64,000 nt of DNA from Minisyncoccota bacterium (GTDB lineage Bacteria > Patescibacteriota > Minisyncoccia > Phycocordibacterales > UBA9973). The stretch covers positions 7,453 through 71,452 of the forward strand of contig JBAYKO010000002.1 of the NCBI GenBank assembly GCA_041664605.1, written 5' to 3'. Below the pieces are notes generated by a model. The model was given only the letters and a program-made list of their open reading frames with translations. It did no database searches and was not told the origin of the DNA. A program made the translations under genes and the position numbers. Positions 22,516-60,180 of this stretch are shown in pieces (position 1 is the stretch's first letter; the number at the start of each line of letters is the position of its first letter).

Positions 22516-22587
22516 AATTAAACAATCAGTCTCGAAAGACTAGTAAGAATTACTTTACTATTTTAAGTAAAAAAAAGCAAGCCCGCA

Positions 22588-22675
22588 CACTTATTTTACT
22601 GTTGGGTGGCTTTTTTAAGCTCAAATTTTTTCTAATTCTATTAAAAACAACAATAAATAAGTGTGTGGGTAAGTT
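22588..22675. repeat. Hairpin repeat (arms GCCCGCACACTTATTT / AAATAAGTGTGTGGG) upstream of rpsL
   Basis: About 15-bp inverted repeat. It shares the 10-mer GCCCGCACAC with 57317-57326, next to tRNA-Gly. Confidence 0.5.
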
Positions 22676-22837
22676 TTTGTGGATAATAACCCTTGAAATC
22701 TTCCCCAAAAACACTAAAAAGAGTAGAATTAGGACAAAGATCGAGTTTACAAACTTTAAAAATTGATTTCTTAAGTCTACGAGAAATCACCTGTAATATT
22801 TACCCGCCTTTGGCTGGGACAGGTAAAAATTAAAAAT

Positions 22838-39837: not shown

Positions 39838-40056
39838 ATGGGTTTATTTGATTTTATTTTTGGTTCGAGTACAGGCTCTGACCCAAAGACCAGGGTTTCA
39901 GATAACGGAGAAAAAATAACCGTAAGAAATAGTGATGTTGTTTTTGATCACAATTCAGGAAAACACGAAACTGCTTGGTCAAAAACAGAAGTTGATACAA
40001 GGACTGGTGATTCAAAAACAAGTGAAGGTGCACATGGGTCCAACTACCAAAAATGA
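39838..40056 (+). CDS. Small hypothetical protein (72 aa) with a canonical Shine-Dalgarno
   Basis: GAAAGGAGGTGTTAAATATG. This is the only clear GGAGG Shine-Dalgarno seen in the window. Confidence 0.45.
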   Translation: MGLFDFIFGSSTGSDPKTRVSDNGEKITVRNSDVVFDHNSGKHETAWSKTEVDTRTGDSKTSEGAHGSNYQK

Positions 40057-40139
40057 GTTATCAAATTCATTTTTGGTATACAAAAAAAACGCTGGGGTAT
40101 GTTATACATTCAGCGTTTTTTATTTTATAATAGAAGGGT

Positions 40140-40418
40140 ATGAACAAAATAACATCAGAAGAAAATAAAGAACTATTTTTAAAAACTTCTATTGTGATGG
40201 GCTTTATTTTATTAGGAGAAAATATTTTAGCAAAAGAATTATTTGAAAAACTAAATTTTCTAAAATTAAAAGATTCTAAAAATAGAGTCAATCCATATTT
40301 ATATAATCTAGCTTATGAGTTATTTCTATTTTTTGATGATAGAGATGTGACAACAATAGAAGATATTAAATCTGAATACAGAAAATGTTGTATTGAATAT
40401 AAAAATTTAGATAAATAA
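40140..40418 (+). CDS. Hypothetical protein (92 aa)
   Basis: ORF followed by a bidirectional terminator at 40433-40463. Confidence 0.4.
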   Translation: MNKITSEENKELFLKTSIVMGFILLGENILAKELFEKLNFLKLKDSKNRVNPYLYNLAYELFLFFDDRDVTTIEDIKSEYRKCCIEYKNLDK

Positions 40419-40468
40419 ATAATATAAAAAACAAATCCCCCGCCGGTTACACCGTGGGGGATTTTAAA

Positions 40469-42037
40469 TTAGTTAGAAACAACAATTTTACCTTTTTTGA
40501 TATTCAAATCATAAAGGTAAATTCCAGAAGAAACATTTAAATTAATGATTTCTTCTTGTTTGTCTATCTTTTTCGAAAAAATAAGCCTCGAGGAAAGATC
40601 GTAGAGATTGAAAGTAAAACCTTGTGCATTTGTAATAATTAAATTACCAATAGTAGGATTTGGAAACAAAGAAATCTGATTTTCTCCAATATTTTCCTCC
40701 GTTACCGAAGTTATTATTGAATAGCAGATTTGTTGTGTGGGTGTAGCTGAACCAACAATAGTTGCTGGAGTATTAACTACAACAGAATCTGTAACATCAA
40801 CTGTCTGTAAAACAACATTATTAACAACAGTCGCTGGTGTAGAAGATATCATTCCTGCATTTTCTTCATCACATCCAGATGTTCCTGACCATTCAGCTTT
40901 TACTAAATAAAGTTTGCTTTGTGAAAAACCAGTTGCAATAAAACCTCCATCAGATGTTTGCATCCCAGAATAAAAATAGTCACCATTTGTAGTCGATAAA
41001 CCAATTAATTTATTCCATAAAATTGAGCCGTTAGCATCAATTTTTACCAAGCAAGCATCATCATCCCAATCTGTAGAATCGCCAGACATTCCAAAAATTG
41101 CATACCCGCCATCAGATGTTTGAGACATTGAATAACTTCTTTCCCAATTTCCATTACCAATAGTCTTAGACCATTCAAGATTTCCATTTGCATCAGTTTT
41201 TACAACATAAAAGTTGTCATCATATTGAGTGTTAACAAAACTTTCAGTGTACCCACAAGCAATAAAACCCCCATCTTGAGTTTGAAGTACTGAATAACCA
41301 CCATCAGCAAGGGGTCCGCCATAAAGTTTTGACCACACTAGATTACCAAGACTATCAGTCTTAATTAGACAAAGATCATAATTACCAGCACCAATATATC
41401 CTCCGTGCCAACCAGTAATAATAAAACCATGATCATTTGTCTGTTGGATTGAAAGTCCGTAATCAGTATCACCACCATCATACATCTTAGACCATTGTAA
41501 GTTTCCATTTGAATTAAGTTTAATAATCCAAATATCAGCAAAAATTGAGCCAAAACCTTCGGTGTATCCCAAAATAACGTAGCCTCCATCAGATGTTTGT
41601 TTTACGGAATAGGAGTAATCATCTCTGTCTGACGAAAATGTTCTTGACCATTCTAAGTTTCCGCTTGCATCAGTTTTAATCACGTAAACGTCTTCAAAGT
41701 ATATTAGGGTTGGAAACGAAGAAGTTTCCCCTGCGATAATATAGCCACCGTCAGATGTTAATTCAATAGAGTAACCAACATCAATACCAGTTCCACCATA
41801 AGTTTTACTCCATAATTTAATACCATCTGCATCAGTTTTAATGAGACAGACTTCATCGTTTACATACCCAGTGATGACATATCCACCATCGGGTGTTTGT
41901 TTTACATCGTTTCCCAGCCCAGCTGATCCAAATAATCTTTGGAAAATAGGCATTTGAGTTTGAGTTTTCCCTGTTTGAGCTATCAATACGAAGCCAAACA
42001 AAAGAATAATAATTGTGAAAAATTTGTTTGTTTTCAT
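40469..42037 (-). CDS. Secreted beta-propeller-like repeat protein (SDGGY repeats) with a C-terminal domain resembling a Por/T9SS-type sorting domain
   Basis: Signal peptide; at least six repeats of (T/Q)(S/N)DGG(Y/F)(I/V/A)I.G. The C-terminus reads LFPNPTIGNLII...FNLYDLSSRLIF...GIYLYDLNIKKGKI. Confidence 0.55.
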   Translation of the reverse strand: MKTNKFFTIIILLFGFVLIAQTGKTQTQMPIFQRLFGSAGLGNDVKQTPDGGYVITGYVNDEVCLIKTDADGIKLWSKTYGGTGIDVGYSIELTSDGGYIIAGETSSFPTLIYFEDVYVIKTDASGNLEWSRTFSSDRDDYSYSVKQTSDGGYVILGYTEGFGSIFADIWIIKLNSNGNLQWSKMYDGGDTDYGLSIQQTNDHGFIITGWHGGYIGAGNYDLCLIKTDSLGNLVWSKLYGGPLADGGYSVLQTQDGGFIACGYTESFVNTQYDDNFYVVKTDANGNLEWSKTIGNGNWERSYSMSQTSDGGYAIFGMSGDSTDWDDDACLVKIDANGSILWNKLIGLSTTNGDYFYSGMQTSDGGFIATGFSQSKLYLVKAEWSGTSGCDEENAGMISSTPATVVNNVVLQTVDVTDSVVVNTPATIVGSATPTQQICYSIITSVTEENIGENQISLFPNPTIGNLIITNAQGFTFNLYDLSSRLIFSKKIDKQEEIINLNVSSGIYLYDLNIKKGKIVVSN

Positions 42038-42195
42038 AGTTTCAATAGCCCCTCCTTGAGACTTATTTTTTATTGTTTAAGAACTTTTAACACTTCTTAA
42101 GAAAGTGTTAGGCGAACATTTACACAGTAAGTGTTTTAGCCTTTTCTGCCCCAACTTTACCATATTTTTCAACGCAAGTCAAAGAAATGTGGATA

Positions 42196-42328
42196 ACCCC
42201 CACACCTATCCCGCCCTTATTCTGCTTTTCAATAACCACTCCTATTATAATCTCAACAACTTATCTAGGTTTAATATTTAAAGAACAGTCTATCTACAGA
42301 ATAAAAGCAAGGGCGGGACAGGTGTGGG
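42196..42328. repeat. MITE-like inverted-repeat element (arms CCCCACACCTATCCCGCCCTTATTCTGCTTT / CAGAATAAAAGCAAGGGCGGGACAGGTGTGGGG, 64-bp loop)
   Basis: ~30-bp imperfect inverted repeat. The core TTATTCTGCTTT...CAGAATAAAAGCAA is shared with the element at 57334-57440. Confidence 0.65.
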
Positions 42329-42434
42329 GGATAACCCGTGCATTCTCACTTCCGAAAAGGACCGCTCTTTTTGAGATTTAGTTTTACAAAAAATCCCCCG
42401 ATATCAATCGGGGAATTTTTATTTTCTCTATTTA

Positions 42435-42839
42435 TTATAGATTTTTGAGAGAGTTCAATAAGTCTAATTTTTGTTGATCTGTTAGTCCGTCACTATTTTT
42501 TGTAGTTCCTGAATTTGCTCCAGAAGTAGAGCCAGTTGTTCCCGATGTTGTACCACTAGTATTTTTTACAGTACCGGATGATAAATTATTTAAAATTTTT
42601 GCTTTTTGATCGGTTGTTAGATTCATGTCTTTTGAAGAATCAGACAGGTCTTTTAAAATATCCAATTTTTGTTGCTCATTTAAGTTATTCATATCAACAG
42701 GCTTTCTAAGTAATAAATAACCAACAACAAGAAGTGCTGTAAGTGCCACTATTAATAAAATTATTCTTAATTTATTTTTTGGATTTTTTAAATCCATTGC
42801 TCCACTATTTTTTTGAGGAAAAATATTTATACTTTTCAT
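42435..42839 (-). CDS. Hypothetical membrane-anchored protein with Ser/Thr/Gly-rich segment (134 aa)
   Basis: TM anchor, then SGTTSGTTGSTSGANSGTT. Confidence 0.45.
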   Translation of the reverse strand: MKSINIFPQKNSGAMDLKNPKNKLRIILLIVALTALLVVGYLLLRKPVDMNNLNEQQKLDILKDLSDSSKDMNLTTDQKAKILNNLSSGTVKNTSGTTSGTTGSTSGANSGTTKNSDGLTDQQKLDLLNSLKNL

Positions 42840-42943
42840 AAGATTGTGTCTGTCATCTAAGACAGAAAAATTATTTATTTACCCTGAGTTTATCGAAGGG
42901 TTACCTTAATCATAACATTTAAGAAATCGAGCAACAAGAAACC

Positions 42944-43294
42944 TTGTGGGAAAAACCCCCACACCTTTTATTTTATTGTCTTAGGTCATATACCTGCACA
43001 ACCTTTCAAGAAGAAAGGTGTGGAGGTATAATTTTTTATATGTATTATTTATATATTCTAAAAAGTTTAAAAGATGAAAAATTGTATATTGGTTCAACTA
43101 ATGACCTAAGACGAAGACTTTCGGAACATAATAATGGCCTTAATCGTTCAACAAAAGCACGACTGCCATTTGAAATTAGGTATTACGAAGCTTATAAAAG
43201 TGAGTATGATGCTAGAAAAAGAGAATATTCATTAAAAAAAGATGGAAAGGCATTAGGGCAACTAAAAAAGAGAATATCCGAAAGTCTTCTATAA
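42944..43294 (+). CDS. GIY-YIG nuclease domain protein (likely starts at internal Met about 43040, ~85 aa)
   Basis: YYLYILKSLKDEKLYIGSTNDLRRRLSEHN is GIY-YIG. Flanked by CCCCCACACCTTTT (42956-42969) and its exact reverse complement AAAAGGTGTGGGGG (43298-43311). Confidence 0.7.
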   Translation: MWEKPPHLLFYCLRSYTCTTFQEERCGGIIFYMYYLYILKSLKDEKLYIGSTNDLRRRLSEHNNGLNRSTKARLPFEIRYYEAYKSEYDARKREYSLKKDGKALGQLKKRISESLL

Positions 43295-43364
43295 AACAAA
43301 AGGTGTGGGGGAAAAGTAAAAGCCCCCAACCGTGATTGGGGGCTTTTGAAAGTCATAAAAAATA

Positions 43365-43850
43365 TTAATTCCCGGCAAATAGAAACTTAGTAAGTTCCTG
43401 ATTTGATCCGTAAGAAAATGATGTTTTAAGCTCTGTTCCATTTCTGGGACAAAAACTAAAATAGAAGAAAATTGGTTTTCCAACTAAATGAATAGTATTA
43501 ATGAATGGAAAAATTCTTATTCCAGATTTTCCATGATTAATACCAGCAAAAATTGCTTCATGAATACTCACTTGTCCGAGACTTTGTCCTTTTCCCAAAT
43601 TATCCAGTTGGTAAAAACCAACATTATTTTTTAGAGACAAGAGATGTAAATTTCTGTGTGAGTTTCTTTTGTGACCTTTTTCTTCTTCTGCCAAAATTAA
43701 ATGGCGTAAATAATTCTCTGTTTCAAGACTTATTTTTACAAATTTTTTTAAAAGTGTAAGCAATTCGTCTGCAGACAAACTGTAATCAACTTTCAATCCG
43801 TCTAAAATTTTTCTTTCTTTAATCATTGTATAATTTTTTATAATGAACAA
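43365..43850 (-). CDS. Hypothetical protein (161 aa)
   Basis: ORF only; no recognisable motif. Confidence 0.4.
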   Translation of the reverse strand: MFIIKNYTMIKERKILDGLKVDYSLSADELLTLLKKFVKISLETENYLRHLILAEEEKGHKRNSHRNLHLLSLKNNVGFYQLDNLGKGQSLGQVSIHEAIFAGINHGKSGIRIFPFINTIHLVGKPIFFYFSFCPRNGTELKTSFSYGSNQELTKFLFAGN

Positions 43851-44040
43851 ACTTGAAATAGATTAGCATATATCTATAAAAAGTCAAGATTTTGAATATT
43901 TACCAATTTTAGCATTTGACATTTCCTTTAATATGTCTATTATAGTAAATGTAAGTCCGTCACGAAACGGGCTTTTATTTTAAAAAATTTAATATTAAAA
44001 AAATAAAAAAGGTATCGAAAGTTTTGTTTTAGTATTTTAC

Positions 44041-44071
44041 TAGAACCTAGAACCTAGAACCTATCACCTAA
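44041..44071 (+). repeat. CTAGAAC heptad array 5' of nusA
   Basis: TAGAACCTAGAACCTAGAACCTATCACCTAATTT-ATG. Confidence 0.7.
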
Positions 44072-44074
44072 TTT

Positions 44075-45487
44075 ATGTTAGATATAAAAGTAATGAAATC
44101 CGCTCTTGAACAATTAGAAGAAGAGCGAAAAATTCCAAAAGAAAAAATAATCGAAGCTATCGAGCAGGCTGTTGCCGCTGCTTACAAAAAAGATTACGGC
44201 AAGAAAGGCCAGATAGTTAGAACTCATCTTGATATGGATACAGGTGCACTTGAATTTTCTCAAGTAAAAATTGTTGTTGATGACACTCTTGTAAAAATGC
44301 CAAAAGACGAAGATGAGGAAGGTGAAGAAAAACAAACTGAAGAAATTGTTGATGATGGAGATGAGAGAGCTTATTTTAATCCTGAACATCACATCTGGCT
44401 TGAAGATGCAAAAAAAATAAAAAGTAATGTTAAGCTCGAAGAAGAAATTATTTTTCCACTTGAAATGCGTGATGACTTCGGAAGAATCGCAGCACAAACC
44501 GCAAAGCAAGTTATTATCCAAAGAATTCGAGAAGCAGAAAGAGAATCAATTGTCGGAGAGTATGGAGAAAAGGAAGGAGAAATCGTTAGTGGAATAGTTC
44601 AAAAAATTGAACACGGTGATGTCTTCGTAGATTTCAATAGAACAGTCGGAGTAATTCCTTTCAGTGAACAAATTCCAAATGAACACTACAGAAGAGGTGA
44701 AAGAATTCGCGCATACTTGTACATGGTTGAAGAAACTCCACGCGGAGTAAATTTGAGATTATCTCGAACTCATCCAAAATTTTTAGAAAAACTTTTTGAA
44801 ATGGAAGCACCAGAAATCGCAAGTGGCGTTGTTGAAATAAAAAGTGTTGCTCGCGAACCAGGATCAAGATCTAAGATCGCGGTTAAATCAAATGATGAAC
44901 ATATTGATCCAGTGGGATCATGTGTCGGCCAACGCGGTGTCAGAGTTTCGACAGTAATGAATGAATTGGGTGGAGAAAAAATTGATCTTATAGAATGGTC
45001 AGATGATCCAAAAAAATTCGTCTCAAGTTCTCTGTCACCAGCAAAAGTTTTAGATATTGAAATTGATGAAAATTTACATCGTGCAAATGTCGAAGTTGCA
45101 GAAGATCATCTATCTCTTGCAATCGGTAAAGGAGGACAAAATGTTCGTCTCGCTGCAAAATTAACTGGATGGAAAATTGATATCAATGGAGTACAAAATG
45201 AAGAAGTTGCAAGCGATGAAGATAAAATTGAAACTGATAATGATAATGAGGAAATTGATAGTGAAACACTTGAAGAAAAATTTGGAAGCGAACAAGTAGT
45301 TGATGAAACAGATGAAAGCAAGGAAGGAATAGAGAATATTACTGATGAAACTGATGAAGAAGATAGTGATGAAAATGAAAACAAAGTGGGGGATGAACCA
45401 GCTATTCAAATAATAAATGATGAAAAAATAAAAGTTGATGACTCTCCTGCCATAGAAATTGTGAAAGAGAAAAAGAAGAAAAAATAG
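44075..45487 (+). CDS. nusA: Transcription termination/antitermination factor NusA with long acidic C-terminal tail
   Basis: S1 domain (GEIVSGIVQKIEHGDVFVDF) and KH domains (GSRSKIAV...CVGQRGVRV; LAIGKGGQNVRLA), then a D/E-rich C-terminal ~90 aa. Confidence 0.9.
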   Translation: MLDIKVMKSALEQLEEERKIPKEKIIEAIEQAVAAAYKKDYGKKGQIVRTHLDMDTGALEFSQVKIVVDDTLVKMPKDEDEEGEEKQTEEIVDDGDERAYFNPEHHIWLEDAKKIKSNVKLEEEIIFPLEMRDDFGRIAAQTAKQVIIQRIREAERESIVGEYGEKEGEIVSGIVQKIEHGDVFVDFNRTVGVIPFSEQIPNEHYRRGERIRAYLYMVEETPRGVNLRLSRTHPKFLEKLFEMEAPEIASGVVEIKSVAREPGSRSKIAVKSNDEHIDPVGSCVGQRGVRVSTVMNELGGEKIDLIEWSDDPKKFVSSSLSPAKVLDIEIDENLHRANVEVAEDHLSLAIGKGGQNVRLAAKLTGWKIDINGVQNEEVASDEDKIETDNDNEEIDSETLEEKFGSEQVVDETDESKEGIENITDETDEEDSDENENKVGDEPAIQIINDEKIKVDDSPAIEIVKEKKKKK

Positions 45488-45549
45488 AAAAAGAAAAACC
45501 GTTTCGACACCTAAATGTCGAAACGGTTTTTTTGATACTACTGGCATTA

Positions 45550-45777
45550 TTATTTTTTTAACACCGCTTTTAGTGCACCAGAGCCAATCACATAGCCGAT
45601 GTTTAGTATCTCAACAATAAGCCACACCCATAAAATACACAAAATTCCTAAGCCAGAAAAGAGTGATATCAAAAATTTTTTTGTTGAAATATTTTTACAA
45701 ACCTCTTTCCAAAGACTAGAAACCATATCTATGAATTGATCTCTTAACTTTTTAATGCCTGATTTCTTAGCTGCCAT
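45550..45777 (-). CDS. Small membrane protein (75 aa)
   Basis: One or two TM helices; ORF only. Confidence 0.35.
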   Translation of the reverse strand: MAAKKSGIKKLRDQFIDMVSSLWKEVCKNISTKKFLISLFSGLGILCILWVWLIVEILNIGYVIGSGALKAVLKK

Positions 45778-46066
45778 ATTTAAGATCTTTTAAATTCTAG
45801 TACAATTGTATCATATTTAGATTGTTTTGTCAACCCAACATACTTACTTTGTTTTTCGGGATATATCTTTAAAATCAGCCTTCATTTATCTATGCAACAA
45901 AGTAAGTGTATGGGTCAACCCAATAAAATGTAACGATTTTGTCCCTCATTCGGCATAAATGATATAATGTAAAAAACTTCACCCGAAAAATGAAGTAAAA
46001 ATTATTAGTTAAAAATTTATTATTAATTATTAAATAAAAAATCACGAAAAAGAGTTTTGCTCTCAC

Positions 46067-48737: not shown

Positions 48738-48790
48738 TCGCCCCGCACTAAAAAATTTGAGCATTAGTTGAATTTTTTTAGTGCTGGGGT
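48738..48790. terminator. Hairpin (CCCCGCACTAAAAAATT ... AATTTTTTAGTGCTGGGG) after tig
   Basis: 17-bp inverted repeat with a 15-nt loop. The AGCACTAA arms are related to the hairpin at 12337-12434. Confidence 0.5.
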
Positions 48791-57296: not shown

Positions 57297-57444
57297 GGTT
57301 AAAATTAGCGGGTACGCCCGCACACTGACTTTGCCATTATTCTGCTTTTTAAATATAAAAAATTTATTTTAAATAACTTAACTGAACATAATTTGTGTTG
57401 AGACTATATCTATCGGCAGAATAAAAGCAATGGCAAAGTAAGTG

Positions 57445-57515
57445 TGCGGGTAGGGAGAATCGGACTCCCGTCTCATCCTTGGCAAGGACGTGTTCTACCA
57501 CTAAACCATACCCGC
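57445..57515 (-). tRNA. tRNA-Gly (anticodon GCC)
   Basis: Hand-folded cloverleaf: acceptor GCGGGTA/TACCCGC, D arm GTTT-AGTGGTA-GAAC, anticodon stem CGTCC/GGATG with loop TTGCCAA, T arm GGGAG-TCCGATT-CTCCC, discriminator A. Confidence 0.85.
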
Positions 57516-59944: not shown

Positions 59945-60180
59945 TTATTAGACAATTAATCTGTTTTAAAATACTTGTCTCTTAAAATACCATTATAAAA
60001 TAAGGATATTAGTTACAACACAGAAAAAATTTTAAGACAAAAATTGACTTGAAATCCCCAATAATTTGTGTCTTTTATGAACATATTCAACATAGTTATC
60101 CACAGTTTCCTTTAAAAAATCCTTAATTTAAAAGGATTTTTATAATTTATAAAAGACAGCAGTATTACAAAAAGACATAA

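Follow-up and report, generated by a model that had tools for sequence, protein, structure and literature searches.

A very small foldback mobile element of Patescibacteria whose only gene encodes a GIY-YIG nuclease

The inverted repeats that flank a GIY-YIG nuclease gene in a Patescibacteria contig are real and mark the ends of a mobile DNA element of roughly 360 bases (356 bp, at 42956-43311 of the window, that is, the whole 64-kb stretch of DNA that was analysed), which carries only this gene, encoding an 84-aa single-domain protein. The DNA of the element is constrained to fold into a three-way junction, it is flanked by a 4-bp target duplication, and it has gene-less hairpin relatives with the same tips, all of them belonging to a large family spread through the ultra-small Patescibacteria. 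The preliminary description, which had proposed a small mobile or homing module, is thus supported with regard to mobility, although homing in the classical sense is not supported, since there is no intron or intein, no conserved allelic site and no extra DNA-binding domain, and duplications are present. The mechanism by which the element moves is inferred. The features on which the following paragraphs rely are these:

42952-42955, no strand assigned: left target-site duplication AAAA of the gene-bearing element.
42956-42976, plus strand: left arm of the terminal stem P1, with the tip CCCCCACACC at 42956-42965.
42978-42989, plus strand: 5' arm of the internal stem P2 (GTCTTAGGTCAT), in the 5' untranslated region.
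42993-43026, no strand assigned: decayed nested mini-hairpin, with arms at 42993-43007 and 43013-43026, in the loop of P2.
43027-43032, plus strand: -10-like TATAAT, 7 nt upstream of the ATG, with no Shine-Dalgarno sequence between them.
43040-43294, plus strand: GIY-YIG nuclease gene, 84 aa plus stop.
43101-43112, plus strand: 3' arm of P2 (ATGACCTAAGAC; codons N-D-L-R).
43113-43125, plus strand: 5' arm of the stem P3 (GAAGACTTTCGGA; codons R-R-L-S-E).
43277-43289, plus strand: 3' arm of P3 (TCCGAAAGTCTTC; codons I-S-E-S-L).
43291-43311, plus strand: right arm of P1, containing the stop codon, with the tip GGTGTGGGGG at 43302-43311.
43312-43315, no strand assigned: right target-site duplication AAAA.
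42197-42330, no strand assigned: 134-bp gene-less foldback (MITE-like) with the same tips, flanked by the ATAA duplication (42193-42196 / 42331-42334) and inserted into the DnaA-box-like TGTGGATAA (42188-42196).
57317-57450, no strand assigned: second 134-bp foldback of the same MITE family, with the variant tip CCCGCACAC, which supplies the 3' acceptor end of tRNA-Gly(GCC).
22582-22669, no strand assigned: 88-bp foldback with CCCGCACAC/GTGTGTGGG tips, 9 nt from a TGTGGATAA box.

The 14-mer CCCCCACACCTTTT lies at 42956-42969 and its exact reverse complement at 43298-43311, as had been noticed, and when one mismatch is allowed the repeat extends to 21 nt (95% complementary); the right arm contains the stop codon TAA at 43292-43294. 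The tip CCCCACACC occurs four times in the window against 0.10 expected, a number reached in 0 of 100 shuffles, and all four copies are the tips of the gene-bearing unit and of the neighbouring hairpin at 42197-42330, whose arms are 28 nt long and 89% complementary. This neighbour is a bona fide non-autonomous relative with its own ATAA duplication (ssDNA fold of -30.5 kcal/mol, z = -7.7). The partial third copy of the repeat that had been noted before the start of the gene is also real, and corresponds to the right arm (43013-43026) of the decayed 34-bp mini-hairpin nested in the 5' untranslated region. The possibility raised beforehand that the repeats are ordinary terminators used genome-wide is excluded, given that they lack T-tracts, occur only at these elements in the 64 kb and travel with the nuclease gene, while the real, bidirectional terminator lies at 43318-43347.

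The ORF is a GIY-YIG nuclease (Pfam PF01541, E = 6e-18, covering residues 1-71), whose real start is the ATG at 43040 and not the TTG at 42944, in agreement with the 83-87 aa of all its close homologues. The residues of the catalytic motifs (Y3, Y5, Y16 (90% or more), G18, R26, E29, H30 and E62) are conserved in 32 homologues, and the protein as a whole is under very strong purifying selection (79% mean column identity). According to an AlphaFold model (pLDDT 78), the nearest solved folds are UPF0213 BH0048/EF2693 and the catalytic domain of I-TevI, with SLX1 also among the nearest solved relatives; the best solved hits have E = 1e-5 and 8.5e-4, with 34% and 29% identity in the fold alignment. 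No NCBIfam family reached its cut-off, the only hits in a plasmid collection were yazA-like, and libraries of defence-system and phage families gave only weak generic homing-endonuclease hits. No second copy of the gene lies in the window.

The exact protein is named in the sources as 'Candidatus Paceibacterota', and a phmmer scan of 1.84 billion cluster representatives found 6591 clusters at E <= 1e-3 and 777 at E <= 1e-10. Eighty homologous loci from species-representative Patescibacteria genomes, at 59-90% protein identity, were retrieved (individual loci are designated below by L and a number). In about 64 of them the gene is bracketed just as in the window, by a left tip (C)CCCCACAC(C), an arm of 14-23 nt, the gene and then the complementary arm overlapping or abutting the stop codon, whereas the surrounding genes are unrelated from locus to locus. 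Apart from CCCCACAC, the tip types include CCCGCAC, CCCAGCAC and ACCCTGTT. In 35 anchored pairs of arms, 90.7% of the cells are Watson-Crick or wobble pairs, against 43-55% when the partner is slid, and 15 of 20 positions show changes on both sides (141 cells), which none of 500 shuffles reaches. The outer 9 positions are nearly invariant and the inner ones change freely with compensation, a pattern that fits a sequence-specific tip on a structure-specific stem.

The signatures of insertion are clear. In 1.16 Mb, comprising 161 loci plus the window, 99 tip-bearing foldbacks were catalogued, falling into four size classes: gene-sized elements of about 280-330 bp; a 131-138-bp family with a shared inner motif, which includes 42197-42330 and 57317-57450 of the window plus L005, L024, L026, L044, L049, L062, L072, L073, L104 and L119; elements of 60-105 bp; and mini-hairpins of 29-40 bp. 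Of 95 non-redundant elements, 54 have a direct repeat of at least 4 bp immediately outside the tips and 47 have exactly 4, while permuted flanks give 5.1 on average and at most 13 in 1000 permutations, although 41 of the 95 lack a perfect duplication. Filled and empty sites exist for gene-less copies: L002 carries a 68-bp element absent from the homologous stretch of L004, and the intact mini-hairpins of L006 and L008, together with a 131-bp MITE in L026, interrupt a 5' untranslated region that is continuous in more than 15 relatives, the decayed hairpin of the window sitting at the same spot as the mini-hairpins. There are also tandem arrays that share single 4-nt spacers, for example GGG-TTAT-[gene element]-TTAT-[MITE]-TTAT-CCACAG in L005. 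Two copies in one genome (L007 and L008) are 87% identical over the aligned element region and differ little within the coding sequence.

For the gene-bearing element itself, however, no empty site was found, only patchy presence. Of 80 nusA relatives, 73 have no GIY-YIG gene detected in the sequence examined around nusA, some of it only a few hundred bases upstream, and all are at most 73% identical in NusA, while the two hypothetical genes flanking the insertion in the window have no homologues there. Of the other seven, which have a GIY-YIG gene upstream of nusA, two are 88% copies with the same tips and five are a 43-52% paralogue with a different repeat, ACCCTGTTAAAT.../...ATTTAACAGGGT. 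Furthermore, identical proteins sit at one fixed locus across many samples and the window holds a single gene copy. Current mobility is therefore low.

Folding of 42945-43320 as single-stranded DNA gives -65 kcal/mol (z = -10) and shows two long-range stems in addition to P1, both of them perfect in the window: P2 (12 bp), between the 5' untranslated region just upstream of the TATAAT and the codons N-D-L-R, and P3 (13 bp), between the codons R-R-L-S-E and I-S-E-S-L. The linkers between the three helices are only 0-2 nt, and the helices form a tight three-way junction. Across 21 elements of 60-89% protein identity to the protein of the window, 93% of 920 cells pair, against 37-52% when slid, and 25 of 46 pairs covary (P1, 11 of 21; P2, 8 of 12; P3, 6 of 13). 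Several of these changes are paired synonymous substitutions, such as TCG/TCC to TCT/TCA in the two serine codons, and where the protein order N-D becomes D-N the arm in the untranslated region changes to match. G:T mismatches are not favoured over A:C (11 vs 25 and 23 vs 19), and a TATAAT/TATACT/TATATT hexamer recurs in the close relatives 7-12 nt before the ATG, downstream of the 5' arms of P1 and P2, although its function as a promoter, like the argument for a leaderless mRNA, rests on consensus matches only. From this it is inferred that the structure is selected in DNA, either as single strands or as an extruded cruciform, and not in the mRNA.

Regarding the targets, the empty sites reconstructed for 47 elements show C at +1 (32 of 47), then C, A, C, and G at -1 (28 of 47), that is, G/N4/CCAC (slashes mark boundaries), a sequence that imitates the duplication followed by the tip. 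The DnaA-box-like TTATCCACA is 8.5-fold enriched in these genomes (91 against 10.7), and about 20 of the 91 perfect copies abut a tip, with TTAT as the duplicated part in either orientation; the MITE at 42197-42330 is one of these cases. Although the cumulative GC skew has a local low and gene orientation switches near 42-44 kb, where a perfect TGTGGATAA abuts the MITE, there is no cluster of DnaA boxes there or elsewhere in the window, so the box is an insertion target and not oriC. The second MITE of the window inserted at CCTA/CCCGC in the 3' acceptor strand of tRNA-Gly(GCC), and its tip now supplies the last six bases of the tRNA. In relatives, the targets include the codons of the prepilin cleavage site. 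Among the 150 nearest cluster representatives, 44 are at least 180 aa long, and 34 of these, plus about eight with variant motifs, are in-frame fusions of the nuclease to a type IV prepilin at ...G-A-G/F-T-L-I-E. The DNA of two of them (L182 and L183) shows the element inserted at GG(N)-TTTA-CC of the G-F-T codons with TTTA duplicated, the right tip plus the duplication re-encoding Gly-Ala-Gly-Phe-Thr; in L182 the old pilin start remains upstream and pilM/pilN follow. No paper linking GIY-YIG and pilins was found.

The closest described system is that of the Ssn nucleases (cd10448) and their NTS-ssnA-NTS loci (Chenal et al., Nat Commun 2025, PMC11893778), single-domain GIY-YIG enzymes of about 94 aa that bind a hairpin repeat flanking their own genes and dispersed in the genome, and that cut single-stranded DNA just upstream of it. 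As there, repeats flank a gene for a protein of about 90 aa and are also found away from it, complete hairpins flanking the gene in L062, L049 and others; in the Ssn family, moreover, repeat and enzyme vary together between lineages, and the authors themselves note the IS-like and REP/RAYT-like layout. Here, nonetheless, the two flanks are the two halves of one foldback, so the gene sits in the loop, two further stems involve the coding sequence, the tip is CCCCACACC, and the published SRM consensus HGTCWYN(0-2)YYVSBRHN(0-5)WNVSBRGN(0-2)RNCYNB has no match on either strand of the window. Duplications, nested insertions and empty sites are not reported in that work, which does not mention Patescibacteria.

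Other systems are more distant. REPIN/REP-RAYT systems also comprise a usually single-copy gene flanked by inverted copies of a short palindromic repeat that exists as many gene-less hairpins, with stable placement and low activity, but RAYTs are HUH (Y1) transposases related to IS200/IS605 TnpA, whereas the enzyme here is a GIY-YIG hydrolase, and REPINs do not carry 4-bp duplications. The IS200/IS605 "peel and paste" transposons are likewise very small, with ends recognised as folded single-stranded hairpins and a short target sequence recognised next to the end, but they use an HUH transposase with a covalent intermediate, lack terminal inverted repeats and target duplications, and have subterminal hairpins rather than a whole-element foldback. 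GIY-YIG homing endonucleases (I-TevI, Seg proteins) and the structure-specific SLX1/UPF0213 (YhbQ/YazA, cd10456) nucleases share the catalytic fold and motifs, and SLX1 cuts branched DNA at junctions, but the element has no DNA-binding extension, intron or intein context or allelic homing site, and occurs in dozens of unrelated contexts. Bacterial MITEs and foldback elements (e.g., Correia, RPE, Nezha) are also short, non-coding and hairpin-forming, with terminal inverted repeats and short duplications, and insert in intergenic DNA and occasionally in genes, but known MITEs derive from IS elements with classical transposases, while here the only associated gene encodes a GIY-YIG nuclease and no recognised transposase (DDE, HUH, serine, tyrosine, Cas1) is encoded. 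In addition, a study of rRNA-gene insertions in CPR independently reports GIY-YIG genes in non-intron insertions at scattered sites (PMC11270868).

Taken together, the most probable explanation, held with reasonable though not full confidence, is that of a minimal insertion element (about 285-330 bp in relatives without the nested hairpin), whose gene-less derivatives (hairpins of 29-138 bp) have inserted independently, some of them nested inside gene-bearing copies or in tandem arrays. It is inferred that the nuclease works like the Ssn / SLX1-type structure- and sequence-directed GIY-YIG enzymes, recognising the conserved tip at the base of the folded stem, in single-stranded or extruded DNA, and nicking at the boundary between N4 and the tip; that genomic sites mimicking N4 plus tip are nicked on both strands with a 4-nt stagger; that host ligation and gap filling then join the element and create the duplication; and that the hairpin derivatives are mobilised in trans. 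A model in which the 4 nt travel with the element through cohesive ends is less favoured, since close relatives carry TTAT or its complement ATAA at the same box in either orientation, which fits a staggered cut plus fill-in better. It must be noted that no biochemistry exists, so nothing shows that this nuclease cuts these tips or suffices for movement, and that GIY-YIG enzymes hydrolyse and do not perform strand transfer, so host ligase and repair must be invoked. Present-day activity, with a gene that is usually single-copy and stably placed within populations, is inferred to be low and REPIN/RAYT-like, rather than the bursts of an IS.

Among the alternatives, a domesticated Ssn-like host system, in which the nuclease and its dispersed hairpins serve the cell, for example by restricting or shaping recombination of incoming single-stranded DNA during natural transformation, as SsnA/NTS does in Neisseria, is unlikely as the sole explanation but not excluded. 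The stable single copy, the strong purifying selection, the precedent in Neisseria, the fusions to type IV pilins (the DNA-uptake machinery) and the whole hairpins flanking the gene in L062 and L049 speak for it, and the repeats around the gene would then be a relic or a means of autoregulation. However, it does not explain the 4-bp duplications, the nested and tandem insertions, the filled and empty sites or the three-way junction that ties the ends to the coding sequence, which need an insertion mechanism at some time. Both readings are in fact compatible, with an origin as a mobile element and a present use by the host.

Much less likely is that the gene is a mere passenger inside ordinary MITEs moved by an unrelated transposase encoded elsewhere (for instance, an IS5/IS701-type enzyme giving 4-bp duplications). 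Such duplications and short terminal repeats are typical of DDE-transposon MITEs, and gene-less copies outnumber gene-bearing ones in the window, but no element of 0.6-4 kb with matching ends was found in the 1.16 Mb, the gene is bracketed with base precision in about 64 of 80 genomes, and the coding sequence itself pairs with the untranslated region and the 3' end. Moreover, only 9-10 nt of the tip are conserved in sequence, which suggests recognition of a structure rather than of a long binding site. Least likely of all is an RNA-level feature pairing the mRNA ends, or acting as terminator or stabiliser, to control expression of the nuclease. P3 does lie wholly within the transcript, a hairpin scan flags TGTGGGAAAAACCCCCACA at the left end and the decayed right arm of the nested hairpin overlaps a GGAGG, but the absence of a wobble bias on the sense strand, the position of the 5' arms of P1 and P2 upstream of the -10-like box, the gene-less copies with the same tips and duplications and the lack of a T-tract after the arms argue against it. 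Neither does any Rfam family match at gathering thresholds; at E up to 1, the best matches over the 42197-42330 hairpin are all miRNA-precursor families, and the remaining weak sRNA/leader matches fall far below their gathering scores.

A bolder reading, which is possible but for now only tentative, is that the nuclease would be the sole element-encoded function of a new class of DNA transposon, at about 290-360 bp apparently the smallest protein-coding one, which would move as a folded three-way-junction DNA, with the nuclease nicking between N4 and the tip and host ligase and repair completing the insertion with a 4-bp duplication. By encoding Gly-Ala-Gly-Phe-Thr with its tip plus the duplication, the element can, on this reading, sit inside type IV pilin genes and be removed at the protein level by the prepilin peptidase.

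GIY-YIG nucleases are known from homing endonucleases, repair enzymes, retroelement endonucleases and, since 2025, the Ssn ssDNA nucleases, but not as the engine of a DNA transposon, and this family supplies the genomic signatures of insertion that the Ssn work lacked. It also shows a gene whose own coding sequence is shaped by a DNA three-way junction, visible as compensatory synonymous changes, and defines a target rule, G/N4/tip-like sequence, that explains the insertions into DnaA-box-like sites, a tRNA end and the prepilin cleavage codons. From a technological point of view, the conserved tip with a free stem suggests a set of small sequence- and structure-specific DNA nucleases with predictable sites and, for Patescibacteria, the family gives a handle on genome dynamics and on assembly breaks.

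The 134-bp foldback at 57317-57450 lies at one end of the gene for tRNA-Gly(GCC), within window positions 57308-57515, and its tip supplies the last six bases of this tRNA, while the acceptor end that it displaced can still be recognized on the other side of the element. The junctions read CCTA|tip and tip|CGTA, and the elements of this arrangement are the following:

57308-57314, the displaced original acceptor end, which reads GCGGGTA on the plus strand
57317-57450, the 134-bp foldback
57445-57450, the last six bases (CCCGCA) of tRNA-Gly(GCC), which is on the minus strand, supplied by the tip of the foldback

The DnaA-box consensus TTATCCACA is also a preferred insertion target. It is 8.5-fold enriched in 1.16 Mb of Patescibacteria sequence and is found in the window at 42188-42196, 22678-22686 and 60096-60104. 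Apart from being a target, it often lies upstream of nusA as a single copy, as occurs about 150-520 bp upstream of this gene in the Patescibacteria loci L088, L130, L139, L140, L159 and L160, which suggests a regulatory site. In the window, the cumulative GC skew has a local low (about -3.29) within positions 40000-46000, and gene orientation switches from minus to plus around 42-44 kb; however, the window minimum of the skew (-3.36) is at 58-60 kb, and no cluster of DnaA boxes is present. In this same part of the window, a 522-aa repeat-rich protein encoded at 40469-42037 on the minus strand has a near-threshold match to the type IX secretion C-terminal sorting domain (Por_Secre_tail, 26.5 bits against a 27-bit cut-off), which is unexpected in Patescibacteria. 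Furthermore, a 49-bp hairpin, CCCCGCACTAAAAAA...TTTTTTTAGTGCTGGGG, lies at 48741-48789, just after the trigger-factor gene. It is either a terminator or a decayed mini-element with a CCCCGCAC-type tip, and no duplication is present.

A second GIY-YIG paralogue, with 43-52% identity, lies directly upstream of nusA in five of the loci (L092 3184-3381, L094 1297-1494, L132 908-1153, L139 4707-4904 and L157 3965-4162), and has its own bracket, ACCCTGTTAAAT.../...ATTTAACAGGGT, together with matching gene-less hairpins, although the copy in L132 has an internal stop codon. In contrast, the GIY-YIG genes of 61-65% identity in loci L042, L044, L049, L055, L062, L072 and L077 lack the bracket and are instead flanked by complete CCCGCACAC-type hairpin elements, which is the same layout as NTS-ssnA-NTS. 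In these cases, the right flanks repeatedly read GGG-T(T/C)TA-CCA(A/C)GC.

In the subfamily whose left arm abuts the ATG (loci L047, L060, L067, L068, L070 and L075), the element sits immediately after the stop codon of a long co-directional upstream ORF and, in L047, L067 and L070, the stop TAA sits at the left tip within the TAAA flank, which is a perfect duplication in L047 and L070. This suggests co-transcription with the host gene. A different association with a host gene, seen in relatives and not in the window, involves type IV prepilins. About 28% of the nearest 150 cluster representatives (P0131, P0148, P0186 and P0199, among other proteins) are in-frame fusions of the GIY-YIG domain to type IV prepilins at ...GAG|FTLIE, for which no literature was found. 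These fusions, represented at the DNA level by loci L182 (456-1214) and L183 (1690-2703), arise by insertion of the element at the GG-TTTA-CC codons with a TTTA duplication, and in them the nuclease would be the “leader” removed by prepilin peptidase.
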